Below are positions 22,551 through 49,466 of a stretch of DNA of 64,000 bases, one piece after another. Each line of letters begins with the position of its first letter. Within the stretch, counting starts at the first letter, position 1. The notes beneath the pieces are model-generated. The model was not told the origin of the DNA. It did not search any database and worked only from the letters and a program-made list of their open reading frames with translations. The position numbers and the translations under genes are program-made. The stretch is from Candidatus Scalinduaceae bacterium (GTDB lineage: Bacteria > Planctomycetota > Brocadiia > Brocadiales > Scalinduaceae), in the NCBI GenBank assembly GCA_046759445.1, contig JBHICG010000003.1, forward strand, positions 32,001-96,000. The letters run 5' to 3'.

Positions 22551-22564
22551 GATTTATTATACAA

Positions 22565-31785: not shown

Positions 31786-32922
31786 TTAACCAAGTAGACT
31801 CAATACTGCCTGCGGTGCAAGGTTGGCCTGTGCAAGCATTGCAGTACCTGCCTGAATCAATATCTGATTCTTGGTAAAGGAGACTGTCTCAAAAGCCAGA
31901 TCAGCATCACGAATGATAGATTCTGCGGCAGATAAGTTTTCAATGCTTGTAGCCAGGTTAGCGCTGGCGAATCCAAGCCTGTTTTGTGCAGAACCAATAT
32001 CTGCACGAGCATTTGCTACCGTGTCAATAGCATTATCAATCGTAGTTAAAGCGGTTTGTGCGCCAGATACTGTAGTGAGTGTTATATCTGCGGAACTGCC
32101 ACTATTTAGGACGGCTACATTCAGGTCTGCTAAGCTGATACCAATTCGGTTACTTCCTGCATTCTCAAATCCAACCTGGAATACGGATTGAGCAGAAGTT
32201 GAAGTGCTTATGGTGTCGGATACACCACCACCACCTGGGGTAGTTACTGATGTAAATCCGGCATCAACAGTAATCTTGATACCAAAAGATGAGAAATTTA
32301 GTGTCTCAGTGCTACCCTCTGCAGGTCCGCTAACTGTTAAGGTTTGAGAAACACTATTCTGCGTAATCTGTATAGTTTCATTTGTAGTATTAATGGCGAC
32401 TGTAAATTGGGTAGCAGAGGCAGCCTCGGAGGTGTCCACACCTACAACTCCACTGGTAGCTACCAAGTTACCAAAATCGCTAATCTGAACAGAACCGAAA
32501 TTTCCATCGATCAGGGTTCGCCCTGAAAATTTAGTTGAATTGGCGATTCGGTCAATTTCAGACTCAAGGTCAGTAACTTCATTGTTTATTTTTGTTCGGT
32601 CAGCAGATGTGGTGTTGGCAGATGCTGCCTGCGTTGCAAGCTCCTTCATCCTCTGTAAGATGTTAGTTATCTGATCTGCAGCGCCTTCTGCAACCTGTAG
32701 TAGCGAATTTGCCTGGCTTGCGTTATTAGCGCCCTGTCTTAAACTTAGAATCTGAGCTCTAAATCTCATTGAAACAGCAAGACCAGCAGCGTCATCTGAT
32801 GCCTTATTTATCTTGAAACCAGTTGATAGTCTTTCTAATGATCTTGTCAAATTGGCATCATTTATTACAAGAGCTCTATGTGTAGCTAGAGCAGCGATAT
32901 TATTTTGAATTCTTAAACCCAT
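31786..32922 (-). CDS. fliC: Flagellin
   Basis: LERLSTGFKINKASDDAAGLA, RA.IG..QNRL, S.IRDAD.A, MLAQAN..PQ.VLSLL. Confidence 0.98.
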   Translation of the reverse strand: MGLRIQNNIAALATHRALVINDANLTRSLERLSTGFKINKASDDAAGLAVSMRFRAQILSLRQGANNASQANSLLQVAEGAADQITNILQRMKELATQAASANTTSADRTKINNEVTDLESEIDRIANSTKFSGRTLIDGNFGSVQISDFGNLVATSGVVGVDTSEAASATQFTVAINTTNETIQITQNSVSQTLTVSGPAEGSTETLNFSSFGIKITVDAGFTSVTTPGGGGVSDTISTSTSAQSVFQVGFENAGSNRIGISLADLNVAVLNSGSSADITLTTVSGAQTALTTIDNAIDTVANARADIGSAQNRLGFASANLATSIENLSAAESIIRDADLAFETVSFTKNQILIQAGTAMLAQANLAPQAVLSLLG

Positions 32923-33147: not shown

Positions 33148-33174
33148 TTATCGGCAAGGAGGCAAGAGACTTTA
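33148..33174 (-). promoter_or_regulatory. Sigma28 promoter of fliC
   Basis: Minus strand TAAA-N15-GCCGATAA, exact consensus. Confidence 0.93.
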
Positions 33175-33443: not shown

Positions 33444-33535
33444 GATTCCCGATCAGAGTCGTCGTGTGATTCTGCCTGTCCTTCGGACAGGCAGAATCAC
33501 CTAAGCAATTCCGCTGTTGCGGAATTGCCCTTGAC
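33444..33535. repeat. Composite ~90-bp palindromic element (second copy at 51441-51534)
   Basis: GATTCCCGATC..GTCGTCGTGTGATTCTGCCTGTCCTTCGGACAGG..GAATCA.CTAAGCAATTCCGCTGTTGCGGAATTGCC..TGAC. Confidence 0.9.
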
Positions 33536-34681
33536 AAGGATTTTGAAAAATTCTTCTGCACTTCTTTTCCATGTGAGTTGACTAAGGTCTTTTCCTGCCT
33601 GCAATCCAATATATCTCAGTTTCTCTCTGTTTTGATATGCCCATTCCAAATGGCCGATTGTTTCGTCTAGATCAGGGGCATCCCATGTGGCAAATATGTT
33701 TCCGTCTCTATAGATGCTCATTGGTTTTATTTGTTTTATCATAATTGAATTATTTGCATTGATAATGTCCTTATGACCACTACTATGAGACGCAATTGTT
33801 GGTTTGCCACATGCCATATATTCCATAAGAACGAGATTTGTGCCTCCTTCACAACGATTGGGGAATATGCCAATATCAGTGTTTTGATACATTCTTGCCA
33901 TTAAGGCATTATGACGGGGTGATAATGTGATAACTCGGTCCAAATCTATCCCGTTATCCTGAAGGGTCTTGTTCACTATCTCAATATAGTTATTTGATGT
34001 AATTTCAAACTTGATATGTGGAGAAGCAGCCATGGTTTTCATACTATCTGCCCAAAAATTAAACCATGAATTTACGAGCATTACGTCCTTATGTCTGTCT
34101 TGCAAAACTTTGTATGCTTTTATGACAATATCCTGTCCCTTGCGAAGTTCAAATTTGCCGCCTGAAAAAACCATAAAGTGGTCTCTGAAGAATTCTTTCT
34201 CCGAATAGGAAGAATTATACAGAAGTGGGTCTATTCCCTGGATTATGGTAGTTACTTTTTCAAGTCCATATTTTCTTAGCACTTCTTCACACCATTTTGA
34301 TCCCGTAATTATAATATCATAGTTATCCCTGCCGTTTTGAATATATCTTTGGTCAAGTATATTTTCTTCGAAGAAAGTATATCCTGCCTTGAAGGTACCT
34401 TTTAAATTTATTCCAAATGGTTGTAGGGTATGATCGTTTATGGCTTGTAAAACAGGATAATCTACATGTTTGAGTGTGCCGTTTTTTATTTTAAGGGCCT
34501 CAGCTTCTCCGATTAATTTACTTTTAAGGAAATGAAAATCAAACTCATCACCAATATCTTTGATGCTAAAATTGTCCGTGATATATTTTATGTTAGTGAT
34601 TTCAGATAACTCCTTTACGAGATACTTGCCGCAAATACCCCATCCGAAATTATTCCCTCTTGGTAGAATTAAATAAATCAT
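33497..34681 (-). CDS. GT4-like (GT-B) glycosyltransferase
   Basis: GGKFELRKG, FPNRCEGGTNLVLMEYMACGKP. Confidence 0.9.
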   Translation of the reverse strand: MIYLILPRGNNFGWGICGKYLVKELSEITNIKYITDNFSIKDIGDEFDFHFLKSKLIGEAEALKIKNGTLKHVDYPVLQAINDHTLQPFGINLKGTFKAGYTFFEENILDQRYIQNGRDNYDIIITGSKWCEEVLRKYGLEKVTTIIQGIDPLLYNSSYSEKEFFRDHFMVFSGGKFELRKGQDIVIKAYKVLQDRHKDVMLVNSWFNFWADSMKTMAASPHIKFEITSNNYIEIVNKTLQDNGIDLDRVITLSPRHNALMARMYQNTDIGIFPNRCEGGTNLVLMEYMACGKPTIASHSSGHKDIINANNSIMIKQIKPMSIYRDGNIFATWDAPDLDETIGHLEWAYQNREKLRYIGLQAGKDLSQLTWKRSAEEFFKILVKGNSATAELLR

Positions 34682-34736
34682 ATAAATTAGCTCCTTTCAC
34701 TCGCTAATTTAATGTATAGGAAATTCAATAATAGTT

Positions 34737-34854
34737 TCCCCCCACTTCTTGCTTTCGCAAGAAAGCAGTGGGGGGATAAAGGCCTGTCTGCCGACAGGTA
34801 GGGGTGTGTAAATATACCATTATACACACCCCCGGCCCCTCTTTTTAGAGGGGA
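34737..34854. repeat. Nested palindromic elements
   Basis: CCCCACTTCTTGCTTTCGCAAGAAAGCAGTGGGG, CCTGTCTGCCGACAGG and CCCCTCT..AGAGGGG. Confidence 0.85.
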
Positions 34855-36716
34855 GCTTGAAATTGTTGCCGAAGGCTTAAATCGTTGTTTTTTAAAACTG
34901 AAATAGCAATTTCAAAAGATGTGCTGGCAAGAAGTTCCTTTTGCTGTTTCGATAATGTTGTTCCTATATTTATGTAGATATTGCTTAAATCACTTATACT
35001 GTCAATTGTTACATTTCTGGGAAGATTAAGGCATTTCAACAATTCGTCACAACTCGCTACACAACTTTCCAGCTCATCGATGGACACATAAATCTTACTC
35101 AGGGCAAGATGAGACTCTATAAGGTATTTGTCCAACTTTAATGTATTCAAAAAACATTGCTTTGCCTTGACATAATTAGATTCACTTAAATATAGAGTGC
35201 CAAGCCTTATGATTACCTCTGGGTTTTCTGGTCTTATCGTTAATATGTCATTGTAAGTATCCCTTGCCTGATTAGTATTTCCTGCTCTCTCATATGCAAT
35301 GGCCAGATTAAACAAAGCGCCAATATGTTGTGGGTCTTTATTGGTAACTGATTTAAATGAATTGATTGATTTATCGAATTGGTTGTCCTTCAAAAGGAGA
35401 AGCCCCAGGCGATATTGTGCCAATATTTCATCTGGATAATCCTGAAGAATCTGTTTGAAATAAGCCAATGCTTTATCTGATGAACCGGATTTTTCATACA
35501 TTTCTGCAATATAGTATTGAATATCTTTGTTCTTGGGGTTATTTTTAAGTCCATCTTTAAGAAGTCTTTCTGCTAATCTGAATTTATTTTGTTCCATGAA
35601 GTATTTTCCGATTGCAAGGTAAGGCTCCCATGCATTGTTAGAACAGTTTACGGCATTCTTTAAGGCCTGAGACCCTTCGTTCTCTTTATCTAGTTGAAAG
35701 TAAACAATAGCCGTCCGTAAGTGAGCCTGCCAGGTGTGTTGGAGGGTATTATATGGTATAGCTAGGGCCGTGGTTGGATCTGATTCAATAGTTTTCAACA
35801 ATCTTAAGTACTTTTTTGTAGCCTCAATGCACTTACCATACTCTTTGTGTAGGAAATATATGGAAGATAATATACTATATGAGTCCAGATAATCAGGATA
35901 AAGATCAAGTGCCTTAAGGGCGTAATTTTCAGCATTGGTCAAATCTTTCTTACGATAAAAGGCAACGCTTACCGTATAGTAAGTGAGTAGCCTTAGCTGT
36001 GTATTGCTTTTTTGTAATTCGAATAGCCTAATTGCCTCGAGACCTTCTTTGATACATTCGTCATACCTATTCCTGTCCAGGCATGAAATTGCCAGATAAT
36101 GATGGGGAATCGGGTTCTTTGGATCATTCTTAATTTGTCCCTTTAAAAGGTTTGAGGTTCTTATAAATTTCCTTTCCATTTGATCTTCATCAAGATTGTA
36201 ACCGTAATGATACAGTTTTATATTCACCTTCTTAGTTGGTCCTGTGTATTTCAGGTTGTTGTGGACTATTCCTTCATAGTGGACGCCAAGATGATTTTTA
36301 AATATTCTTTCTGAATTGGCGACAGCAAGATTTTTGCTTCCATTAGTTTTGGCAAAGACTGGCAAAAAGATTACGTTTATTTTATTGTCTTTAATAACTT
36401 CCTTTAATTTGTGGGCATCTACATTGTCCACTTCCTCATCTGCATCGAGTATCAGAATCCAGTCCGAGTTTGCATACTTAAGTGAATAATTTCGTGCCTT
36501 GCTGAAACTGTTTTCCCACGCATGATGATAAATCTTTGCGCCATATTCTTTTGCAATTTCAACTGTGCTATCGGTTGACCCGGTATCCACAATGATTATC
36601 TCGTCCACATAATCCTTGACGCTTTCCAGACACGCAGGAAGAAACTGTTCTTCACTCTTTACTATCATACAGAGGGATAGAGTTGGATTGTTATTTCTCA
36701 TATTTAAGGAAATCAC
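34845..36716 (-). CDS. GT2 glycosyltransferase plus TPR repeats
   Basis: SLCMIVK.EE, VDTGSTD, ARN.SL, WILILDADE, HYGY, followed by TPRs. Confidence 0.92.
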   Translation of the reverse strand: MISLNMRNNNPTLSLCMIVKSEEQFLPACLESVKDYVDEIIIVDTGSTDSTVEIAKEYGAKIYHHAWENSFSKARNYSLKYANSDWILILDADEEVDNVDAHKLKEVIKDNKINVIFLPVFAKTNGSKNLAVANSERIFKNHLGVHYEGIVHNNLKYTGPTKKVNIKLYHYGYNLDEDQMERKFIRTSNLLKGQIKNDPKNPIPHHYLAISCLDRNRYDECIKEGLEAIRLFELQKSNTQLRLLTYYTVSVAFYRKKDLTNAENYALKALDLYPDYLDSYSILSSIYFLHKEYGKCIEATKKYLRLLKTIESDPTTALAIPYNTLQHTWQAHLRTAIVYFQLDKENEGSQALKNAVNCSNNAWEPYLAIGKYFMEQNKFRLAERLLKDGLKNNPKNKDIQYYIAEMYEKSGSSDKALAYFKQILQDYPDEILAQYRLGLLLLKDNQFDKSINSFKSVTNKDPQHIGALFNLAIAYERAGNTNQARDTYNDILTIRPENPEVIIRLGTLYLSESNYVKAKQCFLNTLKLDKYLIESHLALSKIYVSIDELESCVASCDELLKCLNLPRNVTIDSISDLSNIYINIGTTLSKQQKELLASTSFEIAISVLKNNDLSLRQQFQAPL

Positions 36717-36905: not shown

Positions 36906-38372
36906 TCAGGGACTTATGCCTGATGTTACAGCTTCTGTTTCAATCTTATTCAGTACATCAGGGTCCAGGAGGGCCGCAACCTCAAACGAAAACCTGGCAA
37001 GGAGTTCCTTTTGCTGTTTCAATAATGTTGTTCCTACGTTTATATAAAGTTTGCCTAAATCAGACATGCTATTGATTATTATGTTTCTAGGAAGATTAAG
37101 GTATTTCAACAATTCATCACAACTTTTTATACATTCCTCTATGTTATTCTGGGAGATATAAATCTTGCTCAATGCAAGATGGGCCTCAATCAGGTATTTG
37201 TCCAACTTTAATGTACTCAAAAAGCAATCTTTTGCCTGATTAGTATTTCCCACTCTCTCATATGCAACAGCCAGATTAAATAGTGCATCGATGTGTTGTG
37301 TGTCTTTATTGATAACTAATTTGAACGTATTAATTGCTTCATCGAATTGATTATCCTTCAAAAAGAGAAGTCCCATGCGATATTGAGCCAGTATTTCTTT
37401 TGGATAATTATCTAAATCTTCTTTGAATTGGAAATGCTCTGAGTTGTGTAATTTGTCAAGGATGTATATGAGAGTCTCGGTCTGTTTGTCTATCGTTGAA
37501 AAATGTTTGTCATAGACCGTTTTGACTTTTTTTCTCATTGTCTCAATCTGCCTGTCAGTGTAAGAGTTTAAGATGGAAATAGTATTATGCCAGTCCTCTG
37601 GATCTATAATGACTGAAAAAGAACCGTAATCTAATATCTCACTAAACGGCAAGACCCACCCGTGAGTAAAGATAACGGGTATCGTTCCAAATGCCATTAC
37701 TTCAAGTAAACGATAGGAAAATAAAGCATCTCCTCTGAGGATTAACGAGAACCTTGTATTCGATAAAAGGTCCAGATATTCCCGATTATTTTCTTGTCCA
37801 GTTGCCCATGGCCTCGTGTGGCCACTTTTATTATGATCCAGGAGCTTTATGATAATATCGTCATTATTGTGAAATTTTAGAAAGTTTAGTCTGAAAGGAT
37901 GTGATATTGCTCCCTTAAATGTCAAATAATATTTCTCCTGGCGTGTGAAATGAGCAGGAATTTTAGTGGTTGGAGAGGCCGGAAAGCTAACGTCTATTCC
38001 TTTTCTATAATTATCATTGGACAAACTGGAGGAGGCAAGAATTACATTTTCGTATTCAAACATTTTGGTAAAATTAGAGAATGGATTCATATCAAAAAGG
38101 ACATGTCTTTTGGGGCCATTCCAAAATTCTAATTTCCGAAGTTGACCAGGCGCCTCACTGAAATCTGTTAGTTTACCTTTTATGAATGCTTTATCCGCAT
38201 GCCCATATTCTGGCCAATTGGTTTCGCAAGCAGTGTCAAAGCCTGGAAAAAGAAGTGTCGCTTCTTTCGGATCAACGACTCTCTGCTTATGAGTCTCTAG
38301 AGACTTGTGAACTAAATCATACCATTTCGTGAGACATTTGGAATTTGTTTTTGGGTAGAGATAAAATTTCAT
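36906..38372 (-). CDS. Exostosin (GT47)-like glycosyltransferase plus TPR
   Basis: YLTFKG, YLDLLSNTRFSLILRG..LFSYRLLEVMAFGTIPVI....WVLPFSEILDY. Confidence 0.85.
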   Translation of the reverse strand: MKFYLYPKTNSKCLTKWYDLVHKSLETHKQRVVDPKEATLLFPGFDTACETNWPEYGHADKAFIKGKLTDFSEAPGQLRKLEFWNGPKRHVLFDMNPFSNFTKMFEYENVILASSSLSNDNYRKGIDVSFPASPTTKIPAHFTRQEKYYLTFKGAISHPFRLNFLKFHNNDDIIIKLLDHNKSGHTRPWATGQENNREYLDLLSNTRFSLILRGDALFSYRLLEVMAFGTIPVIFTHGWVLPFSEILDYGSFSVIIDPEDWHNTISILNSYTDRQIETMRKKVKTVYDKHFSTIDKQTETLIYILDKLHNSEHFQFKEDLDNYPKEILAQYRMGLLFLKDNQFDEAINTFKLVINKDTQHIDALFNLAVAYERVGNTNQAKDCFLSTLKLDKYLIEAHLALSKIYISQNNIEECIKSCDELLKYLNLPRNIIINSMSDLGKLYINVGTTLLKQQKELLARFSFEVAALLDPDVLNKIETEAVTSGISP

Positions 38373-38459: not shown

Positions 38460-38802
38460 AGCCCGACAGTATCGTTATGGCGGGTAAATCGATCTTGCTG
38501 GTTCAATCATGTTGATTGAACCTAAATGTTCTGGCTCAGGCTGCAAGCCTGAACCAGCCAAATGGTTAAATTCAATCCCCCTTAGTCCCCCTTTAGTAAA
38601 GGGGGTTCTGTGTTCTGTGTTTCGGGAGTCCCTCCCGAAACATCATCATCTCTAATACTTACTGTTAAATAAAGCATGAAGATTCGCTTCGGGAGAGACT
38701 CCCGAAACACAGGAATTTGTTTCAATTTATGTTAATTGGTGTCTGTTGCGGAATTGTCAATGACATTTTTGGGAATTTAAGTTTCCGCAATAGAAACTAA
38801 TT
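38460..38802. repeat. Cluster of several palindromic elements
   Basis: GCTGGTTCA..TGAACCAGC, CCCCCTTTAGTAAAGGGGG, two TTCGGGAG..CTCCCGAA units and a TGTTGCGGAA...TTCCGCAATA element that contains the GT stop codon. Confidence 0.8.
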
Positions 38803-41800
38803 AGCAGTTAGAACATTTACTGTATCCATTGGTTGAACTCGTTTCAGATCCTCGCATATCTTAAAAGCAGTATCAGCAGCTTGAGTATCCCGCCTTTCTT
38901 TAAGTTTATGGCCTATTATGTCAAAGAGATTTGCCAGATCAGATATGCTTTCCAATGTTATATTTCTAGATATATTGAGGAGTTGCAATAACTGGTCGCA
39001 ATAAGAGACAACATCTTCGAAATTACCTTGAAGAATATTAATTTTGCATATAAGTAATCTGATATCAAACAGAGAAGGTTCTATATTGACGGCCTTTTCC
39101 CAAAAATGAATAGCTTCCTTGAGGTTGCCTTTTTTAAATTTAACATGACCCATTTTGATAATTGCATCTACTGAAGTATCTTTAATATTTAGGAGCTTCT
39201 TGTAGATTTCCTCCGACTTTTCAAGATTGTTATTATCCAGATAGAATTTACCTATAAGCCTAAGGCAATCTTCAATTGCAGTCGACACCTTAAGCGCTTT
39301 ATCTATCTCGGCATTGCCCTTTTCATTCTGACCGCTGGATAGGTAGTAAAATCCACGTAACAAATGTATCTTCCATTTATGACCAATGGTATAGTAGGTA
39401 TATGCATTAATCGCTTCATTGTGATTTGCGATACTATCCAATAGAGTTATATAATTGTCTGAAGTCTGCAGAAAATTGTCATACTTTTTCAGATTGTAAT
39501 AAATGAATGATAGGATACAGAAAACATCTAAGTAATTTTCATCGATTCCCATTGCTCGCAGGGCGTATGTTTCTGACTCTTTTAGTTCTCCTTTCTCAAA
39601 ATATGCGGCGCTGATAACGTAGTAAGAAACCAGGAAATCTTTTATATTAAATCCATTATTCTCTGCAAGTTCTAATGCCCTCTTACTTTCTGAGACTGCC
39701 TCATCATACATACCCTGATCCAGATACGAAATGCCGAGGTACCTGTGCGGAACAGGATTATGTGGTTCTTGTTTTATCTGATCCTTTAATAATATGGTGG
39801 TGCGTAAAAACTTTTCTTCCATTTTTTCTTCAGATAAGTTATAGCCGTGATGGATAACACTTAACGAGGAATCAAGACATTTACCCGTATGCCTTAAGCG
39901 ATTGTGCACAGTTCCCTCATAATACGTCCCGTTAAAGTTCTTGAAAAGGCGTATCATCTTTGCGTAGCATTCTTGTGTGGAATCTTTAAACTTATTTTTA
40001 ATAAGAAAAGAAACAGCCGTATAGTTGTTATTACTGGCTATTTCTTTTAGCTTGGGGATATCAGTCTTATTCATCTCTTCGTCGGCATCGAGTATTAATA
40101 TCCATTCACTGGTTGCATATTTCAGTGAATAATTTCTTGCCTTGCTAAAACTCCCTTCCCATGGATGATGAAATAATTTTGCTCCAAAACTCTTTGCAAT
40201 CTCGACACTCCTGTCAGTAGAACCTGTATCAACAATTATTATTTCATCTACTACATCTTTGACGATGTTAAGGCACTGTGCAAGATTATGTTCTTCATTT
40301 TTTACGATCATGCAGAGGGATATACTGCCATGAAATCCCCCCCACTGCTTTCTTGCACCGTAGCGGCACGCTGCGAAAGCAAGAAGTGGGGGGGATTTAG
40401 GTGGATTCTCTCTTCTCTTCGATAATTTCTTCTGGACGTTTTTGAGGTTATTTATGATTACCTGATTATGAGGGTCAAATTCACTGGCCTTTTTGAAGAA
40501 GAACGCTGCCCTTTCGTACAACCCTTCTTTATCTTCAAGACAACCAAGATTATTGTAAATCTCTGCATCCTTTACCCTCTGAAGGACTTTATAAAAGAAG
40601 ATCCTTGATTCCTCGAATCGCTTCATGTCAAGACACAGTGTTCCCATGCCCTTGATAGCATTGACGTAATCTGTATCGATTTCTAATGCCTTTTTATATA
40701 GCGTTTCTGCCATCTTAAAATCATTCTTTAAGTAATACAAACGTCCGAGATTGTACTGTGCGGATTTTGATTGAGGACAAAACTCACAAGCCTTCTTCAG
40801 GTAAAAATCGGCATGGTCGTAATCATCGAGTGAACTATATACACAACCAAGATTTTCGTATGCCTCGAAATAATCAGGTGATATGTCTATGGCTTTTTTC
40901 AAATACTTTACTGCATCTTCAAATAAACCTTTCTCTGAACACTGTATTCCAAGGTCAAAGTGTGCCCTTGCGTTGTTGGGATTGTCTTTTATCTTTTTCA
41001 TGCCGATAGAAAGATACAAGTCTCCTTTTTTGTCTAGTTGTTGTTTGTCTTTAGCTTTTCCGTAATGATGAATTACAATATCAGTATTTCCTATTTGATT
41101 GTTTCCATCAAGGTGTGAAATATCCGCAATTTCATGCACTCTGCCACTGAAACGGATCCCCCTCCGGTTTTTGAATAGTCTGATTAGGGGAGAATCTATA
41201 TATCCAGCGTAATCCTTGCCTTCAATGTAGTCTGTCTTATTCTCCATCCAGCCCTTGAAACCTGCATAATTTTCATAATTTCTCTGTATCAAATTAAATC
41301 CGGTATTATCTGTAATACTTATTAATTCCCTTATTCTTTGCATATCTTTCTCTGCTATGACTTCGTCTGCATCGAGCGCCAATATCCAATTGCCAGTTGC
41401 ATGTCTAAGAGATATATTTCTTGCCTCACTAAAATCGTCATTCCATTTATGGCCGTACACCCTGGCGCCATACTGTTTTGCTATCTCAACAGTTTCATCA
41501 TCTGAACCTGTATCTACTACAATAATCTCGTCTACAAATGGTTTCATCTTTTGCAGACATTTTGGCAGGTAGTCTTCTTCATTCTTAACTATCATGCATA
41601 AGGATATAGTTGATCTGCTTTTTTCATCCAAAGATCTTACAAATATTCCATCCATTTTACTAATTGGAGGATTATCCAGTTCTACTTTGCCAACAGGCAT
41701 AATCCCCCTTCCTCCCCCTTTGATAAAGGGGGAATGAGGGGGATTTTCATCTTCCTTCCTGTCCGAACGCCTTGCCTGAGCGGATGTGCCTTCTTTTGAA

Positions 41801-43008
41801 GTGATTGTTACGTTTTTGTTATTAAAAATATTGTTGTGACTTCTTTCAAAAATAGTGTTTGATGGCGTACAAGTTCCTTTTATTTCTCTATCAAGCTCTC
41901 CATCCCATTCTCTGGCTATTACGTCCCATGAATAATTTTCTAATGCCCTGTGATGTGCTGTCAAGCTCATTTCGTTCCATCTATCCTTGTATCTTATCAG
42001 ATGAACAACCTCTTTTACGAACCGATCTTGATAATCACGAGATTTACTATTTCCTGATATACAAATACCTGTCTTATTGTGTAGAACTGTTTCACTTAAC
42101 CCGCCTGATTCTGTTGTTACAACGGGAAGTCCGGCAGCTTGCGCCTCTATTGCGGCTATGCAAGAAGTCTCAGTGAAGTGGTTGGGATATACCATTAGAT
42201 AGGATTTCTTTAATTCGTCGGATAATATGTTCTGAGGTATGCTGCCCTTGAGGTAAATGCCCGGCTGATTGCATTTGTCATAAAGCTTTCCATACATCTT
42301 CCTGTTATCGTCTTCTGACATTCCGTATACGCACATACTGCTATATATAAATAGTTCAGCAAATGGTATTCTGGTTTTAATAATCGGGAAAACATCCAGA
42401 AGTACATCCAGCCCCCTGAAAGGAGTACTGGTATACACAAGCCTGCCAATATTTCTTTTGTATTTATTGTTTTCGTAAAATTCTCGATTTATACCATTTC
42501 TGCTTAGAAAAAATTTTTCTGAGGATATATTAAAATGTTTCATCATTGTCTCTGCTTGCCATTTCCCAACGGTAAAGATCTTATCGATTCTGTTTTGAAT
42601 ATATTTATTGCCAAGGTCTTTCAGGAATGGCTGGTCGTAAGCATCCTGTGTCCAGAATATTTTTAATCTTGCAGGAAGATTCATTTTAAAGGCATCCAAC
42701 ATTCTTGAGACAACCATGACATCGAAGTTTTTCCCCAAAATATAACTTTCGGATTCTTTGATGTCTTGATATAAAACACCATTGTAGTTTCCAGGGGCAT
42801 TACATGGACAAATGACTACTACATCATTGCCAAGCCTGGCCAATTCTTTTGCAATGTATATTATTGCAGTTTCACTGCCGCCCAATCCTTTGTTTATAAT
42901 AGTCTCAGGATTGAATTCTACGCTGTTGGCAAGGAATAATATGGATTTCTTCATATCTTTAACTTTAATATTTTGCCACAGAAATTCCACGGAATTATGC
43001 TGAAACAC
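38797..43008 (-). CDS. Multidomain glycosyltransferase GT4-GT2-TPR-GT2-TPR (ATG at 42954 possible)
   Basis: GLGGSETA and ETSCIAAIEAQAAG (GT4). Two SLCMIVKNEE...DADE domains. TPRs. Confidence 0.92.
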   Translation of the reverse strand: MFQHNSVEFLWQNIKVKDMKKSILFLANSVEFNPETIINKGLGGSETAIIYIAKELARLGNDVVVICPCNAPGNYNGVLYQDIKESESYILGKNFDVMVVSRMLDAFKMNLPARLKIFWTQDAYDQPFLKDLGNKYIQNRIDKIFTVGKWQAETMMKHFNISSEKFFLSRNGINREFYENNKYKRNIGRLVYTSTPFRGLDVLLDVFPIIKTRIPFAELFIYSSMCVYGMSEDDNRKMYGKLYDKCNQPGIYLKGSIPQNILSDELKKSYLMVYPNHFTETSCIAAIEAQAAGLPVVTTESGGLSETVLHNKTGICISGNSKSRDYQDRFVKEVVHLIRYKDRWNEMSLTAHHRALENYSWDVIAREWDGELDREIKGTCTPSNTIFERSHNNIFNNKNVTITSKEGTSAQARRSDRKEDENPPHSPFIKGGGRGIMPVGKVELDNPPISKMDGIFVRSLDEKSRSTISLCMIVKNEEDYLPKCLQKMKPFVDEIIVVDTGSDDETVEIAKQYGARVYGHKWNDDFSEARNISLRHATGNWILALDADEVIAEKDMQRIRELISITDNTGFNLIQRNYENYAGFKGWMENKTDYIEGKDYAGYIDSPLIRLFKNRRGIRFSGRVHEIADISHLDGNNQIGNTDIVIHHYGKAKDKQQLDKKGDLYLSIGMKKIKDNPNNARAHFDLGIQCSEKGLFEDAVKYLKKAIDISPDYFEAYENLGCVYSSLDDYDHADFYLKKACEFCPQSKSAQYNLGRLYYLKNDFKMAETLYKKALEIDTDYVNAIKGMGTLCLDMKRFEESRIFFYKVLQRVKDAEIYNNLGCLEDKEGLYERAAFFFKKASEFDPHNQVIINNLKNVQKKLSKRRENPPKSPPLLAFAACRYGARKQWGGFHGSISLCMIVKNEEHNLAQCLNIVKDVVDEIIIVDTGSTDRSVEIAKSFGAKLFHHPWEGSFSKARNYSLKYATSEWILILDADEEMNKTDIPKLKEIASNNNYTAVSFLIKNKFKDSTQECYAKMIRLFKNFNGTYYEGTVHNRLRHTGKCLDSSLSVIHHGYNLSEEKMEEKFLRTTILLKDQIKQEPHNPVPHRYLGISYLDQGMYDEAVSESKRALELAENNGFNIKDFLVSYYVISAAYFEKGELKESETYALRAMGIDENYLDVFCILSFIYYNLKKYDNFLQTSDNYITLLDSIANHNEAINAYTYYTIGHKWKIHLLRGFYYLSSGQNEKGNAEIDKALKVSTAIEDCLRLIGKFYLDNNNLEKSEEIYKKLLNIKDTSVDAIIKMGHVKFKKGNLKEAIHFWEKAVNIEPSLFDIRLLICKINILQGNFEDVVSYCDQLLQLLNISRNITLESISDLANLFDIIGHKLKERRDTQAADTAFKICEDLKRVQPMDTVNVLTAN
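40334..40408. repeat. In-frame palindromic element within the 1403-aa GT
   Basis: CCCCACTGCTTTCTTGC[ACCGTAGCGGCACGCTGC]GAAAGCAAGAAGTGGGG. Confidence 0.88.
41701..41793. repeat. In-frame palindromic elements within the 1403-aa GT
   Basis: AATCCCCCTTCCTCCCCCTTTGATAAAGGGGGAATGAGGGGGATT, followed by CCTGTCCGAACG...CGGA. Confidence 0.85.
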
Positions 43009-43021
43009 AATGACAACGAAA

Positions 43022-43110: not shown

Positions 43111-43135
43111 AAGATATTGAGCAATTATTCATGTG

Positions 43136-45019
43136 CTAAACCGCAATTCGCAATCCCAAATCGACAACCTCTTGTAACAATGCCTTTCTAATCTGTTCGA
43201 ACACTCCACCCCAATCTTTTGGTCTGGTTTGTCTAAATAAGCGCACATCCGGATACCACGGGCTATCATCACGGTTTAATAACCAGCGCCAATCTGGCGC
43301 AAAAGGCAAGAGAACCCACACCTGTTTGCCAATGGCTCCAGCTAAATGCACAACTGCGGTATCTACGGCAATGACCAGGTCTAAATTGGATATTGCGGCT
43401 GCCGTATCTGCAAAGTCGCTTAAATCATTTTCAAGGTCTATGATTTTCATTCCCTTAGGCGAATTAAGTATTTCCACCGATGCTGGTCCTTTTTGAAGAC
43501 TGTAAAAAGTTAACCCCGGAATGTCAGCAAGTGGAGCAAGGTCAGTGAGTGAACAGGAACGATTGCGGTCATTTCTATGCCTGGGATTGCCTGCCCAAAC
43601 AAGGCCAACCTTAAAAGTATCGTCTTGATCAAGGCGCATGCGCCATTGCGCCACAAGTTCGTGATCAACCGAAATATAGGGTACATCCGATGGTATAGTT
43701 TGCAGAGTTGTGCCAAATATTCCTGGTAGACTTAGTAATGGTATATGGAAGTTAAAATGTGCGGCAGGTTTACGGTTAGCTTTATGTTCTATAATCTCGT
43801 CAAACCCTGTACATTTTTTTAATAAGCGTGAAAGAACCTGCTGGCACTCAAATATTACGTGTCCTCCTTGTGCATGTACCATAGGGAGATATCTCACGAA
43901 TTGAATGGTGTCGCCAAGACCTTGCTCTGCGTGTACGAGTATGGACTTGCCTTTTAGCGGCGTGCCGTCCCATCGTGGTTGCTGGAAGACGTTTGAAGTG
44001 CAATCTTTTGTGAGCAATCTCCATTCATACTCTGGCCAGCCGTCTTCAAAGCTTTCTGTTAACAATAATGCAAGAGACCTATTTCTATACGCCTCTACAT
44101 ACTCAGGTCTGAGTTCAATTGCGCGACTGTAACTCTCTACAGCTTTGTCAAGTTTGCCCTGGTCTTGAAGCGCAACAGCAAGATTATTGTGCGAAGTGGC
44201 ATCGTCTGGTTTAAGGGCAATTGCGCGTCTACAACATGCTACCGCCTCATCAAGCTTGCCTTGTTCTTGAAGTATAACGCCAAGATTGTTGTGTGCCGTG
44301 GCATCGTCTGGTTTAAGCTTAATTGCTCGCTTACAGTATTTCACTGCCTCATCAAATTTACCCTGTTTTTTTAAGGTGTTACCAAGATTATAATGAGCCT
44401 CAACATAGTTCGGTTTGAGTTTTATAGCCTGGATAAAGCTCGCAATTGCTTCGTCAAGTCTGCCTAGTTCTTGTAGCGCCGTAGCGAGATTATTATGCGC
44501 TATTACATAATCGGGTCTGAGCTTTAATACCTGCCTGTAAGTTTTTACTGCCTCATCATATTTACCGTGTTCTTGAAGTGTATTGCCAAGATTGAAATGA
44601 ACCTCAGCATCGTCTGACTTTAGCGCTATTACGCACCTGTAACTTTCTATGGCTTCGTAAAATTTATCCTGTTTTTTAAATGTGTTGCCGAGATTGAAAT
44701 ATACGTCAGCATAGTCAGGGTTGATTGCTATTGCTTGATTATAAGTGGCTACTGCCTCGTCAAGTTTGCCCTGTTCTTGAAGTGCCGTGCCAAGATTGTT
44801 ATGCGCAACCACATTGTCTGGTTTGAGTTTTATTGCCTTCCTGAGGAAAGTGGCGGCTGTATCATGATTTCCCTGTTGTAGATTCAAGGTGCCAAGGAGA
44901 AAATTTGTATCAGCGTGTTCTGGCTGTTTCTTCAGTAGCTTTTGGTAAAGTTGCGCTGCTGCTGCTAGATTTCCAGCCTGGTGATAATTATACCCTTTTT
45001 GAAGCCATCCTTTAACCAT
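43136..45019 (-). CDS. TPR repeats plus GT9-like glycosyltransferase domain
   Basis: About 8 TPRs. EQGLGDTIQFVRY, VWAGNP, DLVIAVDTAVVHLAGA, DWRW. Confidence 0.9.
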   Translation of the reverse strand: MVKGWLQKGYNYHQAGNLAAAAQLYQKLLKKQPEHADTNFLLGTLNLQQGNHDTAATFLRKAIKLKPDNVVAHNNLGTALQEQGKLDEAVATYNQAIAINPDYADVYFNLGNTFKKQDKFYEAIESYRCVIALKSDDAEVHFNLGNTLQEHGKYDEAVKTYRQVLKLRPDYVIAHNNLATALQELGRLDEAIASFIQAIKLKPNYVEAHYNLGNTLKKQGKFDEAVKYCKRAIKLKPDDATAHNNLGVILQEQGKLDEAVACCRRAIALKPDDATSHNNLAVALQDQGKLDKAVESYSRAIELRPEYVEAYRNRSLALLLTESFEDGWPEYEWRLLTKDCTSNVFQQPRWDGTPLKGKSILVHAEQGLGDTIQFVRYLPMVHAQGGHVIFECQQVLSRLLKKCTGFDEIIEHKANRKPAAHFNFHIPLLSLPGIFGTTLQTIPSDVPYISVDHELVAQWRMRLDQDDTFKVGLVWAGNPRHRNDRNRSCSLTDLAPLADIPGLTFYSLQKGPASVEILNSPKGMKIIDLENDLSDFADTAAAISNLDLVIAVDTAVVHLAGAIGKQVWVLLPFAPDWRWLLNRDDSPWYPDVRLFRQTRPKDWGGVFEQIRKALLQEVVDLGLRIAV

Positions 45020-45026
45020 TACATAA

Positions 45027-46238
45027 TTACTCGCTTTGTCTTAAAAATTTATCCTTGCTAAAAAGCACATTAAAAACAAATTTTGATTGCAAATACTGGT
45101 CGGGCATCAATTTAACCACTTTTAGATTTAAACCTTCTCCACTGAAACAGTAGGTGTTGTATCCAAGTTCACTCATAAACTTCCTTAGTTCACCTTCACT
45201 TGTTCCCATTTGCCGTAAAGCAGACCTATTAACTTCACAGATAATATAGGGAATATTATTTTTTAATATGATGGTTTCGCCTCCGCGTAGAATATCGAAT
45301 TCGGCTCCCTCCGCATCAATCTTTATCAGTTTGCAAGTCACAAGATTTTTATCTCTAAAAAAATTGTTCAGAGTTTCGAGTTTAATTTTTTTTACTAATT
45401 GATTAACACGGCTTATCTTGTTGAAACTATGTGTGCCTACATCCCATAAAGCGTGTCCTCCATCATTATCCAGATTTAGAAAAAAATCAGTTTCTCTATT
45501 TTTTACTCCCAATGCCAAATTAAATGCGTGTATATTCGTTTTTTTATTGATTGTAATATGTCTTTTTATGTGATTGTAATTAGAAATAGATGGTTCAAAA
45601 GTGAAGACATTGCCTTCTTTTCCAACTAACTCAGAGGCTAACAATGAAAAATATCCAATGTGTCCTCCAATATCGATTACAACGTCGCCCATTTTTACTA
45701 TAGTTGCTATAAAACAGGAAGTTTCTTCTTCATATAATCTATTATGTGAGATAAAATCCCAAATTATTTTTTGACTAAATTCTTCCAGATTTAATGTCAG
45801 CTTATACTTCAGAGGAATATCGCCTAGCTTAAAGGATAAATTTATTTCCTTTGTTATATTAGAACTAAATGAGTAATCTTTTTGCTTCTTTAAGTTATTA
45901 ATTATAGTTTCCTTTTCTTCTGTTGATAGGCAATTGCCGTACTCTGTCAAAATCGTTTTTACTGCCTTCCAGTTGCCAATTTCTTGATAATTCAAAATAA
46001 GATTGTGTATTGCATCTGTATTATTATTGTCTTTTCTGAGCACTTCCAAAAAAGTCGATGTGGCTTCATGGTATTTCCCTAACCTGTATAGAGATACGCC
46101 TTTATTATTTAAGGCAGAAAGATTTCCAGGTTCCTTTTCCAATATAGATTCGAAGATTTTAAGAGCCTCTTCTATTGCTCCTTCCCGAAAGAGTTGTTCT
46201 CCATGCGCAATTTCTCCACTTAATATGCCTGTAGTCAT
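45027..46238 (-). CDS. TPR plus FkbM-family methyltransferase
   Basis: VIDIGGHIGYFS, FEP, KIDAEGAE. Confidence 0.92.
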   Translation of the reverse strand: MTTGILSGEIAHGEQLFREGAIEEALKIFESILEKEPGNLSALNNKGVSLYRLGKYHEATSTFLEVLRKDNNNTDAIHNLILNYQEIGNWKAVKTILTEYGNCLSTEEKETIINNLKKQKDYSFSSNITKEINLSFKLGDIPLKYKLTLNLEEFSQKIIWDFISHNRLYEEETSCFIATIVKMGDVVIDIGGHIGYFSLLASELVGKEGNVFTFEPSISNYNHIKRHITINKKTNIHAFNLALGVKNRETDFFLNLDNDGGHALWDVGTHSFNKISRVNQLVKKIKLETLNNFFRDKNLVTCKLIKIDAEGAEFDILRGGETIILKNNIPYIICEVNRSALRQMGTSEGELRKFMSELGYNTYCFSGEGLNLKVVKLMPDQYLQSKFVFNVLFSKDKFLRQSE

Positions 46239-46397: not shown

Positions 46398-47921
46398 TTA
46401 ACTTGAAAATAGCTTGTGTGTCTGGTTTAAAATTATTTCATTACTCCATTTCGGACTGATAAATTCTTTTAGCAATTCTTTTTTCACCCGCTCGAATACT
46501 CCAATCCAATCATAGAATTGAGTTTGTCTGAATAGGCGCATACTTGGATACCACGAGCTATCATCACGGTTTAGCAACCAGCGCCAGTCTGGCGCAGAAT
46601 GTAATAGATTCCACACAGGTTTTCCAATGGCTCCAGCCAGATGCGCAACTGCGGTATCTACGGAAATGACCAGTTCCAGATTAGCTATTACGGCTGCTGT
46701 ATCTGCAAAGTCGTTTAACTCATCTCCCAGGTTAGTTAGTTTAACCCACTTGGGTGGATCGAGTGTATCTACTGATGCTGGTCCTTTTTGGAGTCCGTAG
46801 AAGGACAGGTCTGGAATGTTAAATAATGGAACAAAATCAGCCAGTGAACAGGAACGATAACGATCCTTCTTGTGCTTGGGGCTACCTGCCCAGACAATAC
46901 CAATCTTAAAATCATTATTGTGATCAAGTCGCATGTGCCATTGATCAACGAGCTTGGGATCAACAGTAATGTAAGGTATGTCTGATGGTATGGTGTCTAA
47001 GGTAGTGCCGAAAATTCCAGGTAAGCTCAGCAGAGGGACATGAACGTCGAATTGATTAGTTGTTTCCTTGTCAGGTGTTCGTTCTACAATCTCATCAATA
47101 CCTGCGCAATTTTCCAATAATTTGGATAGGCCCCGTTGGCACTCAAATAGCACATATCCACCCTGTGCCTTGACCATAGGTAAGTACCGTACGAAATGAA
47201 TGGTATCACCAAAACCTTGCTCAGCATGCACCAGGATATGCTGACCATTGAGTGGTGAGCCATCCCATTGGGGTTGTTTGAAATTTTTAGGGGCATCATC
47301 TTTTGTACAAAGTCTCCATTCATATTCTGGCCAACCCTCTTCTAACTTTCCAGCCAACAATAATGCAACAGACATATTCATATGGGCATCAGCAAAGTCT
47401 GGTTTGTGTTTTATTGCCTGCCTGTAATTTCCAACTGCCTCGTCAAGCTTACCCTGTTCTTTAAGCACATTACCAAGGTTGTAATACATCTCAGCGTCAC
47501 CTGGGTTGTGTGAAATTGCATTCCTGTAGCTATTTACTGCCTCATCAAGCTTGCCCTGTTCTATAAATGCATTACCAAGGTTGTAATATGCATCAGCATA
47601 GTCTGGCTTGAGTGTTATTGCTTGATTAAAACTTAGCACTGCTTCATCGAGTTTACGTTGTTTTTGAAGAACAGTGCCAAGATTATTGTATGCTACCACA
47701 TGGTCTGGTTTGAGTTCTATTGCCTTCCTGAGAAATATGGTGGCAGTTTCAAGATTTCCCTGTTGTAGATTAAGAGTTCCAAGAAGAAAAATTGCGTCAA
47801 TATTTCCTGGTTGTTTGTCAAGTATCTTTTGGTAAAGCTGTGCCGCTGCTGCAAGATTTCCCGTTTGGTGACAGTTATGTCCTTCTTGAAGTAAGTCTTC
47901 TATATTGGCCATTATAAGCAA
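46398..47921 (-). CDS. TPR plus GT9-like glycosyltransferase
   Basis: TPRs. EQGFGDTIHFVRY, SVDTAVAHLAGA, DWRW. Confidence 0.9.
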   Translation of the reverse strand: MLIMANIEDLLQEGHNCHQTGNLAAAAQLYQKILDKQPGNIDAIFLLGTLNLQQGNLETATIFLRKAIELKPDHVVAYNNLGTVLQKQRKLDEAVLSFNQAITLKPDYADAYYNLGNAFIEQGKLDEAVNSYRNAISHNPGDAEMYYNLGNVLKEQGKLDEAVGNYRQAIKHKPDFADAHMNMSVALLLAGKLEEGWPEYEWRLCTKDDAPKNFKQPQWDGSPLNGQHILVHAEQGFGDTIHFVRYLPMVKAQGGYVLFECQRGLSKLLENCAGIDEIVERTPDKETTNQFDVHVPLLSLPGIFGTTLDTIPSDIPYITVDPKLVDQWHMRLDHNNDFKIGIVWAGSPKHKKDRYRSCSLADFVPLFNIPDLSFYGLQKGPASVDTLDPPKWVKLTNLGDELNDFADTAAVIANLELVISVDTAVAHLAGAIGKPVWNLLHSAPDWRWLLNRDDSSWYPSMRLFRQTQFYDWIGVFERVKKELLKEFISPKWSNEIILNQTHKLFSS

Positions 47922-47969
47922 ATAAGCTCCTTAATACTTTTATAAATAAGATATGTGCCTGATTAGAGT

Positions 47970-49466
47970 TTAGGTGTTTTTGATTAAAGCCTCCTGTTTC
48001 AGATTTTTTACAGACAACTGAGTGAGCAATTCTTTTTTCACCCGCTCGAATACTCCAATCCAATCATTGAATTGCGTTTGTCTAAATAAGCGCATACTTG
48101 GATACCACGAGCTATCATCATGGTCCAATAACCAACGCCAGTCTGGCGCAGAATGTAATAGATTCCACACAGGTTTTCCGATGGCTCCGGCCAGATGCGC
48201 AACTGCAGTATCTACCGAAATGACCAAATCCAGATTAGCTATTACGGCCGCTGTATCTGCAAAGTCGTTTAACTCATTTTCCAGGTTAGTGAGTTTCATC
48301 CCCTTGGGTGGGTCGAATGCCTCTACTAATGTTGGTCCTTTTTGGAGTCCGTAAAAGGACAAGCCTGGAATGTTAAATAATGGAACGAAATTAGCCAGTG
48401 AGCATGAGCGATAACGGTCCTTCTTGTGCTTGGGGCTACCTGCCCAGACAATGCCAATCTTAAAATCATTATTGTGATCAAGTCGCATGTGCCATTGATC
48501 AACGAGCTTGGGATCAACAGTAATGTAAGGTATGTCTGATGGTATGGTGTCTAAGGTAGTGCCGAAAATTCCAGGTAAGCTCAGCAGAGGGACATGAACG
48601 TCGAATTGATTAGTTGTTTCCTTGTCAGGTGTTCGTTCTACAATCTCATCAATACCTGCGCAATTTTCCAATAATTTGGATAGGCCCCGTTGGCACTCAA
48701 ATAGCACATATCCACCCTGTGCCTTGACCATAGGTAAGTACCGTACGAAATGAATGGTATCACCAAAACCTTGCTCAGCATGCACCAGGATATGCTGACC
48801 ATTGAGTGGTGAGCCATCCCATTGGGGTTGTTTGAAATTTTTAAGGGCATCATCTTTTGTACAAAGTCTCCATTCGTATTCTGGCCAACCCTCTTCTAAC
48901 TTTCCCGCCAACAATAATGCAACAGACATATTCATATGGGCATCAGCAAAGTCTGGTTTATGTGCTATTGCACGACGACAACTTTCCACTGCTTTATCAA
49001 GTTTACCTTGTTCCAGAAAGGCAGAACCCAGGTTGCTGTATGCAAGCACATAATCTGGTTTAAGCGCTATTGCTTGAGTATAGCATTCCACTGCCTCATC
49101 GAGTTTACCCTGTTTTTTAAGCGCTGTGCCAAGATTGTTATGCGCATCTGGATAATCTGGTTTAAGCGCTATTGCATGACGACAGCATTCCATTGCCTCA
49201 TCGAGTTTATCCTGTTCTTTAAGCGCAGTACCAAGATTACTGTATGCCATCGCATAATCTGGTTTTAGTGTGAGTGTTTTCTTAAAATATATAGTAGCAG
49301 TTTCCGGGTTTCCTTTTTGTAGATTCAAGGTTCCCATGAGAAAGATTACGTCGACATGATCTCGCTGCACGTCAAGTATCTTTTGGTAAAGCCTTTCTGC
49401 TGCCATGAGGTTTCCACTCTTATGAAGGCTAAGTGCATTTTGGAGTAAATTTTTAGTGTTTACCAT
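47970..49466 (-). CDS. TPR plus GT9-like glycosyltransferase, near-identical catalytic half to its neighbour
   Basis: Same motifs. Long near-identical DNA tract shared with 46398..47921. Confidence 0.9.
   Translation of the reverse strand: MVNTKNLLQNALSLHKSGNLMAAERLYQKILDVQRDHVDVIFLMGTLNLQKGNPETATIYFKKTLTLKPDYAMAYSNLGTALKEQDKLDEAMECCRHAIALKPDYPDAHNNLGTALKKQGKLDEAVECYTQAIALKPDYVLAYSNLGSAFLEQGKLDKAVESCRRAIAHKPDFADAHMNMSVALLLAGKLEEGWPEYEWRLCTKDDALKNFKQPQWDGSPLNGQHILVHAEQGFGDTIHFVRYLPMVKAQGGYVLFECQRGLSKLLENCAGIDEIVERTPDKETTNQFDVHVPLLSLPGIFGTTLDTIPSDIPYITVDPKLVDQWHMRLDHNNDFKIGIVWAGSPKHKKDRYRSCSLANFVPLFNIPGLSFYGLQKGPTLVEAFDPPKGMKLTNLENELNDFADTAAVIANLDLVISVDTAVAHLAGAIGKPVWNLLHSAPDWRWLLDHDDSSWYPSMRLFRQTQFNDWIGVFERVKKELLTQLSVKNLKQEALIKNT

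Follow-up and report, generated by a model that had tools for sequence, protein, structure and literature searches.

A GT47 exostosin-family domain apparently recruited onto a shared TPR tail in a probable flagellin glycosylation island of a Candidatus Scalinduaceae bacterium

Introduction

What is known of flagellin glycosylation comes mainly from Maf, FlmG, GmaR and similar enzymes. GmaR of Listeria monocytogenes is reportedly a flagellin O-GlcNAc (O-linked N-acetylglucosamine) transferase that combines a GT2 glycosyltransferase domain with tetratricopeptide repeats (TPR). As far as can be judged from that description, it is the nearest analogue of one gene in the locus presented here (GT2-TPR), although its catalytic family differs from that of the protein with which we are primarily concerned. 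That protein, P0001, is encoded within a 64,000-nucleotide stretch of contig JBHICG010000003.1 (positions 32,001 to 96,000; assembly GCA_046759445.1) from a Candidatus Scalinduaceae bacterium. The whole stretch is hereafter referred to as the window and all coordinates are counted from its first nucleotide. P0001 joins a GT47 (exostosin) domain to a C-terminal TPR tail, and its gene lies within an island of glycosyltransferase genes upstream of a flagellin gene.

FlmG of Caulobacter crescentus and Brevundimonas offers a parallel in architecture, as it likewise carries TPRs and a GT-B domain in a single polypeptide and is genetically linked to flagellin. In published work, the TPR domain of FlmG binds flagellins and the GT-B domain does not, while both are needed (PMC7591256), and exchange of the GT-B domain changes the sugar that is used (bioRxiv 10.1101/2022.03.25.485807). 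The specificity of FlmG chimeras is reprogrammed by domain exchange, and a comparable natural exchange appears to have produced P0001. The likeness is one of architecture, since the TPRs of FlmG are N-terminal and its donor is pseudaminic or legionaminic acid, whereas those of P0001 are C-terminal and accompany a GT47 domain; in this respect, NCBIfam returned only TPR-type matches.

With regard to the catalytic domain, the GT47 domain of human EXT1, which is a glucuronic acid (GlcA) transferase (PDB 7sch, 7zay and 7uqy), shares with P0001 its Pfam family, GT-B fold and four residues that bind uridine diphosphate (UDP). However, P0001 has no GT64 domain, no membrane stem, and neither the D162/D164 pair nor the R340 of EXT1; instead, it carries a TPR tail and belongs to a separate clade as a bacterial and presumably cytoplasmic protein. 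A precedent for the type of role we propose is the extensin arabinosyltransferase ExAD from Arabidopsis GT47 clade E, which extends an O-glycan on a structural glycoprotein. Unlike P0001, it is a 793-amino-acid (aa) type II Golgi membrane protein using an arabinofuranose donor, and the two are compared by description (PMC5371791). Two bacterial proteins, P0053 and P0060, belong to the same soluble GT47 clade as P0001 (the GT47 part of P0053 is 34% identical) and likewise continue into TPRs. The TPR-GT9-like portions at their C-termini have homologues in three separate genes of the island, so that what is one polypeptide there is divided here, and P0001 is encoded by a separate gene with no more than a short local tail.

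Bacterial GT47s as such are already known, and a full-text literature search, judged by title and the start of the abstract, returned no publication linking an exostosin-family enzyme to flagellin glycosylation. Two aspects of the current locus appear to be new: the recruitment of a GT47 domain into a flagellin-linked island through exchange of the catalytic domain attached to a shared TPR tail, and the recurrent fusion or adjacency of this GT47 clade with TPR-GT9-like enzymes.

Results

The reading frame of P0001 (36906..38372, minus strand) is open for 488 codons and encodes, according to its translation, Pfam and hydropathy, a soluble protein of 488 aa that starts without an N-terminal membrane stem. 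The GT47 catalytic domain comprises residues 1–312 (37437..38372), as delimited by Pfam, phmmer, alignments, AlphaFold2 and Foldseek, and the TPR tail comprises residues 316–488 (36909..37427), as delimited by protein and DNA comparison with the adjacent GT2-TPR gene; Pfam places the repeats at approximately residues 320–420. PF03016 (Exostosin_GT47) matches residues 15–270 over profile positions 29–292 of 293 with an E value of 8.5e-35 and 120.9 bits (122.4 bits in a whole-genome search), against a curated cut-off of 33.4 bits. Among PDB sequences, phmmer matched the GT47 part to human EXT1 (7sch_A; E 1.8e-22; residues 2–305), EXT2 (E 1.3e-18) and EXTL3 (E 1.8e-5), and all 7 distinct PDB sequences found at E ≤ 0.01 with this part alone were exostosins. 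The AlphaFold2 model, built from a 10-sequence alignment, has a mean predicted local distance difference test (pLDDT) score of 78.0, with low-confidence stretches at residues 51–80 (pLDDT below 50), residues 182–194 and the linker at 312–319. Its Foldseek ranks 1–15 in the PDB are all occupied by EXT1, EXT2 and EXTL3 (best E 1.4e-16), while the ESM Atlas model of P0001 aligns over 290 residues to a chordate exostosin-1b cluster (template modelling score 0.84 by query). Judging from these sequence and model comparisons, residues 1 to approximately 312 form a genuine GT47/exostosin domain with a GT-B fold. The original prediction had proposed as much, and every peptide block it quoted is present. 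The fusion to TPRs beside GT2 and GT4 enzymes that it described is also borne out, as Pfam identifies the neighbors as a GT4 gene, the GT2-TPR gene and a gene encoding a 1403-aa protein with the arrangement GT4-GT2-TPR-GT2-TPR (38797..43008, minus strand).

It is the tail of P0001 that reveals its chimeric construction. The adjacent GT2-TPR gene (34845..36716, minus strand; 623 aa) ends in the same type of tail, for which it may be either source or partner. Residues 316–466 of P0001 are 60% identical to residues 420–604 of the GT2-TPR protein (111 of 185 columns; E 2e-67), and the P0001 tail lacks exactly one 34-residue repeat, equivalent to one TPR, that is present in its counterpart. The DNA encoding the two tails consists of direct repeats with 77% and 80% identity and with spacings that differ by 102 nt, and this homology ends at nucleotide 37427, i.e. 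at codon 316, which coincides with the domain boundary and the modelled linker. The GT47 domain of the closest GT47 homologue, the metagenome protein P0002, is 76% identical to that of P0001, as against only 46% for its tail, which has kept the extra TPR. Since P0002 resembles P0001 more closely in its GT47 domain than in its tail, the tail evidently follows the local gene cluster rather than the GT47 lineage. The names carried by homologues of the tail suggest a Candidatus Scalindua-like anammox bacterium.

Gene order in two other genomes of the same genus is consistent with this. In one (G002), the flagellin gene is followed by a single GT2-TPR gene and then directly by a gene of the 1403-aa type, while the other (G001) has two tandem GT2-TPR genes between the flagellin gene and its 1403-aa-type gene, such that the slot of P0001 is occupied by the second GT2-TPR copy. 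DNA matching the GT47 part was found in neither genome. None of 60 other genomes from this order has a PF03016 match above the cut-off, and the genome of P0001 itself contains one. The simplest history that these sequence comparisons suggest, and most likely the correct one, is that the catalytic part of a tandem GT2-TPR duplicate was replaced by a GT47 domain, which most likely came from the soluble bacterial GT47 clade described below. A recent foreign origin was also considered on the basis of composition and was rejected, as the GC content of the GT47 segment (0.378) and its GC content at third codon positions (0.372) both lie inside the range of its neighbors. The junction itself is bridged at 37159–37656 and 37303–37667 by contigs from RNA libraries (two metatranscriptome runs of one study) that are 97.6% and 98.4% identical to the window, and therefore the fusion exists outside of this assembly. 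Metatranscriptome contigs cover parts of the window, and the stretches between them carry no meaning.

The gaps between the island genes contain most of a set of short dispersed repeats (approximately 50–190 nt) located near 33415–33537, 34701–34894, 38492–38566, 38732–38804 and 40333–40399. These repeats recur on dozens of contigs in the genome of P0001 as well as in both same-genus genomes, and the bins that contain them exhibit very high summed depth in the metatranscriptome contigs (716 and 299). A 25-nt inverted repeat is also found at 38615–38639/38688–38712, and no Rfam family was detected within 31–50 kb of the window. The dispersed repeats lie on either side of the GT2-TPR/GT47-TPR pair and may have contributed to the rearrangement.

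The connection of the tail to flagellin is apparent from related genomes. The flagellin gene of the window (31786..32922, minus strand; 378 aa), assigned by Pfam, NCBIfam and a homologue search, encodes the presumed acceptor and has homologues in 14 of 22 further genomes from this family. When 15 other flagellin loci from related genomes were retrieved with flanks of 1.5 kb, the same-strand gene immediately upstream of flagellin was found to end in the P0001 tail type in 13 of them, 11 of these genes being closest to GT2-TPR and 2 to the C-terminus of the 1403-aa protein. No GT47 domain match was present beside flagellin in any of the 15 loci. This conserved adjacency is the main evidence that the TPR-tailed transferases serve flagellin. 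A sigma-28-type promoter motif located 227 nt upstream of the flagellin start (33149..33174, minus strand) was the sole match in a motif scan of the window, in which approximately 0.47 matches would be expected by chance. Prediction of a complex between tail and flagellin, run without controls on alignments of 28 rows for the tail and 16 for flagellin, yielded scores of 0.01 and 0.00 relative to a mark of 0.32, which point neither towards binding nor away from it. As judged from gene content and adjacency, the island is very probably a flagellin glycosylation island, which agrees with the original prediction of a flagellar glycosylation locus: flagellin, FliD, FliS and FlgN are all encoded nearby and the rest of the window contains flagellar genes.

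The nucleotide-binding residues of the GT47 domain are particularly well conserved. EXT1 holds UDP via R280, R346, E349, Y324 (by stacking) and Y319, and loses GlcA transfer in the R280A, R346A and D162N/D164N mutants (PMC9675754), while an acidic residue at the E349 position, located on helix C-alpha-4, is conserved across characterized GT47s and is required in EXT1 as well as in IRX10 (E293) (PMC9178029). In an L-INS-i alignment of 18 sequences, including 4 EXT-type proteins, R161, R221 and E224 of P0001 occupy the columns of EXT1 R280, R346 and E349 and are invariant (18/18), whereas Y199 falls in the uracil-stacking column of Y324, which is aromatic in 17 of the 18 rows; Y319 sits in an EXT1 insertion without a counterpart in P0001. 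The EXT1 D162/D164 pair, which is EXT-specific in this alignment, aligns with C49/T51 of P0001. The R340 column contains Arg in only the 4 EXT-type rows and Asp in P0001 (D215) along with 11 other rows. EXT1 D159, the first Asp in the motif that contains D162/D164, corresponds to D46 of P0001, and this position is acidic in all 18 rows. Nearby, E50 shows no variation among the bacterial homologues of the 10-sequence alignment, where the motif reads DTAxETNWP, and 12 of 18 rows in the wider alignment have Glu at this position. The highest 19-residue hydropathy value of P0001 is 1.48 and falls within the fold core, which indicates a soluble protein without a hydrophobic stem. From these conserved positions, P0001 is probably an active nucleotide-sugar transferase. 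Likeness to EXT1 does not predict the donor sugar, because characterized GT47s use several different sugars, and hence the donor of P0001 appears not to be inferable from EXT1.

A second feature of this GT47 clade is its recurrent association with TPR-GT9-like enzymes, of which the window encodes three paralogues. The metagenomic protein P0060 (1712 aa) consists of a GT47 domain followed by two TPR-GT9-like units, with which the 498-aa island protein (47970..49466, minus strand) shares 40% and 42% identity (482 and 464 columns; E ~1e-106). P0053 (syc1452_c of Synechococcus elongatus PCC 6301; 788 aa) has a GT47 domain followed by one such unit, and the 507-aa island protein (46398..47921, minus strand) is 30% identical to its residues 329–778 over 472 columns (E 2e-50); P0055 was grouped with P0053 as a GT47 domain fused to a TPR-GT9-like unit. 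Separate genes are found as well. On contig L042, which encodes P0005 from the subclade of P0001, a TPR-GT9-like gene lies approximately 550 nt away (38% identical; E 6e-106), and the Verrucomicrobia locus L016 and the locus L041 contain at least 4 and two copies, respectively. In total, a GT9-like catalytic domain is near or fused to the GT47 relative in 4 of the 53 related loci, 3 of these being among the 22 loci with a length of at least 8 kb; the association is recurrent but not universal. Its recurrence in these sequences suggests that the GT47 clade may work with TPR-GT9-like enzymes on a shared acceptor.

Several of these loci have further features of their own. In the 19 kb of L016, the GT47 relative lies among a TPR-GT4 gene (1090 aa), a TPR-DUF4422 gene and the aforementioned TPR-GT9-like regions, an arrangement that resembles the island, and no flagellar genes are present. 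A 712-aa TPR-sulfotransferase fusion adjoins the GT47 relative at the Prochlorococcus locus L024 (5234–7372). Synechococcus Ogt, a described pilin glycosyltransferase, was considered as a GT47 homologue and was set aside, as it is a TPR plus GT41 protein.

When examining the distribution of the GT47 domain, it is evident that relatives are widely scattered. Motif-guided scans located 14 loci in species genomes with 29–35% identity to P0001, which include Magnetospirillum, Oharaeibacter, Defluviicoccus, Methylocystis, Roseomonas and other Alpha- and Betaproteobacteria as well as a Verrucomicrobia bacterium, Tepidisphaerales, two Prochlorococcus and a Sphingobacteriaceae member. An additional 39 metagenome loci have relatives with 26–39% identity. 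Among these 53 loci (449 kb in total), 52 of the GT47 open reading frames (ORFs) are at most 426 aa or are cut by a contig end, while the one in L039, which is P0060, runs for at least 1639 aa. In samples that each include the seed genome, PF03016 matches above the cut-off were present in 5 of 401 genomes for the phylum of P0001, 6 of 251 for the phylum to which a Prochlorococcus locus belongs and 3 of 251 for the class to which a Magnetospirillum locus belongs. The description of GT47 as predominantly eukaryotic in the original prediction is fair, except that bacterial members do exist and are already labelled as such: they are rare (~1–2% of sampled genomes), but known, and the UniRef name of the Synechococcus member P0053 is 'Exostosin GT47 domain-containing protein'. 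A profile search of 1.84 billion proteins returned 130,739 at E ≤ 0.001, a number that is not a count of GT47s, since the profile included TPR columns.

The phylogenetic comparison proposed in the original prediction was performed as a quick maximum-likelihood tree (IQ-TREE, LG+G4) of 101 GT47 domains, with a fish EXT1 as outgroup (from a homologue search that returned 5 proteins and no plant GT47), no plant GT47 rows, and branch support from the Shimodaira-Hasegawa-like approximate likelihood ratio test (SH-aLRT) only. A branch with support of 99 separates the EXT-type rows and the fish EXT1 from the other 95 rows, P0001 among them, and three of the four EXT-type rows checked carry GT64 (P0200, P0177 and P0193). 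P0001 pairs with P0002 (support 100) within a group of eight soluble metagenome proteins (support 90). In the free tree, this 8-row subclade was sister (SH-aLRT 86) to a group rich in membrane stems that includes the protists Codosiga and an MMETSP transcript, but that relation was discarded, as a constrained tree in which the subclade joins the named bacterial clade was better by 12.0 log-likelihood units (p-AU, the approximately unbiased test, 0.746). A single soluble bacterial GT47 clade would therefore fit these alignments at least as well as the free tree.

A phage origin was also considered, given that the clusters returned by an Atlas feature search for P0001 were labelled mostly Uroviricota, and it was likewise dismissed. 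A tblastn search of 50,697 phage records returned 4 records (2 phages, each present twice) with at most 30% identity over 64% of the domain, and no clade member was found in an IMG/VR scan. The relative in Synechococcus phage S-SKS1, with 30% identity over 64% of the domain, is annotated as hypothetical and is located beside genes for GDP-mannose 4,6-dehydratase, GDP-L-fucose synthase and a fucosyltransferase (L074; record positions 42115–48666).

The remaining island genes are all transcribed from the minus strand. In order of transcription, the island runs from the two adjacent TPR-GT9-like genes to a gene for a TPR protein with an FkbM-family methyltransferase domain (45027..46238; Pfam and NCBIfam), the third TPR-GT9-like gene (43136..45019; 627 aa), the 1403-aa gene, the GT47-TPR gene, the GT2-TPR gene, a GT4 gene (33497..34681; 394 aa) and flagellin. 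The third TPR-GT9-like protein has TPRs according to Pfam and a C-terminal domain 66% identical to the 47970..49466 product. The catalytic parts of the adjacent pair are 90% identical, which identifies these genes by sequence as an apparent recent tandem duplication. Promoter scans for sigma-70-type motifs and terminator scans both gave results at chance level.

Downstream of flagellin on the same strand are a gene for a 23S rRNA intervening-sequence (23S-IVS) protein (31264–31647), a small ORF, and the genes for FliD, FliS and FlgN. The 23S-IVS gene had no match in any of the 15 related flagellin loci, where the small ORF follows flagellin within the 1.5-kb flank, and it looks like a lineage-specific insertion. 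FliD, the filament cap (27518–30637), is unusually long at 1039 aa, and Pfam covers only its residues 12–117 and 475–636. The plus strand of the window encodes FliI/J, MotA/B, FliL/M/N/O/P/R, FlhB/A/F and a sigma factor, followed, after a block at 16031–23827 of five HD/HD_5-domain proteins (one with GAF) and a GGDEF response regulator, by FliK, FlgD/E/F/G/A/H/I, FlgN and FlgK. As assessed from its annotated genes, the window is one flagellar cluster, and the HD/GGDEF block between its operons suggests cyclic-di-GMP control of motility.

Discussion

Based upon the features described above, the reading we favor, with modest confidence, is that P0001 is a cytoplasmic, catalytically competent, inverting GT-B enzyme of family GT47 that belongs to a team of TPR-fused enzymes building an O-linked oligosaccharide on flagellin before its export. 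Its family, its fold, the retention of its nucleotide-binding residues, the absence of a membrane anchor, its chimeric construction and the presence of its tail type beside flagellin are all observed. From gene position and precedent, we infer that flagellin is the acceptor, that the tail serves for docking, and that P0001 extends a glycan rather than initiating one. According to this scheme, the TPR-fused glycosyltransferases would assemble the oligosaccharide upon flagellin in the cytoplasm, and the tail that P0001 shares with GT2-TPR would bring both enzymes to the same partner, either flagellin or a flagellin-bound complex. The GT47 domain would then transfer a single sugar from a nucleotide-sugar donor, probably a UDP-sugar, to a glycan begun by another enzyme of the island, for which the three TPR-GT9-like proteins would be the best candidates.

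Several observations weigh against this reading. A search with 13 flagellar protein queries (E ≤ 1e-5) detected a flagellar gene in none of the 53 related GT47 loci, and Pfam found no flagellar family among 81 ORFs from 13 of the 14 genome loci. Synechococcus and Prochlorococcus are not known to be flagellated, so that relatives in both suggest a GT47 clade that is not specific to flagella, and the acceptor of Synechococcus P0053 would have to differ. Within the window, the motif scan placed no sigma-28-type motif upstream of the glycosyltransferase genes and no sugar-nucleotide synthesis gene is among the annotated genes. The contigs that bridge the fusion junction demonstrate its presence, rather than its transcription, strand or level. 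For the catalytic base, there are only candidate residues, D46 and E50, as D162/D164 are replaced by C49/T51, and both candidates lie beside the poorly modelled stretch at 51–80. Lastly, both the glycosylation of flagellin and the action of P0001 upon it are themselves inferred.

Some of these same observations would be expected if the island glycosylated a target other than flagellin, such as another flagellar protein (e.g. the 1039-aa FliD), an S-layer or surface protein, or a polysaccharide, in which case the position within the cluster would reflect history or shared regulation. The absence of flagellar genes from all 53 related loci and of a sigma-28-type motif upstream of the transferase genes is compatible with such a target, as is the co-occurrence of GT47 and TPR-GT9-like relatives in cyanobacteria that are not known to be flagellated (P0053 and L024). 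Nevertheless, we regard a different target as unlikely, given that a gene with this tail type immediately precedes flagellin in 13 of 15 related loci, and that soluble TPR-fused enzymes in an island with no annotated flippase, oligosaccharyltransferase or export gene fit cytoplasmic glycosylation of the FlmG type; indeed, neither a flippase nor an oligosaccharyltransferase is among the annotated genes of the entire window. It is more improbable that the GT47 domain is itself the initiating O-glycosyltransferase, transferring the first sugar to Ser/Thr of flagellin while the TPR tail presents the acceptor as in FlmG or O-GlcNAc transferase (OGT). The combination of GT-B domain and TPRs is certainly that of FlmG, but the GT47 activities characterized in the literature cited here act on glycan acceptors, and the island already encodes three TPR-GT9-like proteins with long N-terminal TPR arrays in an OGT/FlmG-like layout. 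Furthermore, all other flagellated relatives examined lack the GT47 gene but retain flagellin, as expected of an optional decorating step.

The resemblance to EXT1 and its relatives raises two additional scenarios. The original prediction had envisaged a glycosaminoglycan-like chain on the flagellum, i.e. a GT47 domain that transfers GlcA like EXT1 and contributes to a repeating chain along the filament. EXT1 is indeed the best match in both sequence and fold, and two genes of the UDP-glucose/GDP-mannose dehydrogenase family are present on other contigs of the genome, yet this scenario appears very improbable. P0001 is placed outside of the EXT-type group, the EXT-only residues D162/D164 and R340 are replaced, and donors differ among characterized GT47s. 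GT64 (PF09258) has no match in P0001 and none was found in its 97%-complete genome, in a search made without a positive control. In addition, the solved GT47 structures among the PDB hits are all of the EXT type, and a best match to EXT1 partly reflects what has been solved. Least probable of all is a catalytically dead scaffold comparable to the GT47 domains of EXT2 or EXTL3. As in EXT2, the D162/D164 pair of EXT1 is not conserved in P0001, but all four alignable UDP-binding residues are kept and the D46/E50 motif is invariant or nearly so among 10 homologues, with D46 acidic in 18 of 18 rows and E50 present as Glu in 12 of 18.

Flagellin modification by a TPR-fused team, which we continue to favor, could also be one instance of a broader arrangement. 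It is conceivable, although we consider it rather doubtful, that the soluble bacterial GT47s and the TPR-GT9-like enzymes constitute a conserved two-enzyme module for cytoplasmic protein O-glycosylation that has been plugged here into the flagellin pathway. In such a module, choice of the protein and addition of the first sugar would fall to the TPR-GT9-like enzyme, and extension would fall to the GT47 enzyme. The two would be fused into giant proteins in some bacteria (P0060 and syc1452_c) and split into separate genes in others, and in this anammox lineage the module would have joined the flagellin pathway once a GT47 domain was grafted onto the island's own TPR tail. If this were the case, exostosin-type chemistry on proteins would not be an invention of the eukaryotic Golgi, and the genetically tractable Synechococcus elongatus would be well suited for a direct test.

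On present evidence, the locus gives no pointer to heparan-sulfate-like chemistry in bacteria. Rather, it appears to be a natural version of the FlmG domain-swap experiment, with the same tail attached to a GT2 domain in one gene and to a GT47 domain in the next. Together with relatives that have either two GT2 copies or one, it may provide a clean system for the study of glycan diversification by catalytic cassettes on a fixed docking module. Likewise, the repeated fusion of GT47 and TPR-GT9-like enzymes across distant phyla points to a protein-glycosylation module without prior characterization, which should be testable in a model cyanobacterium.

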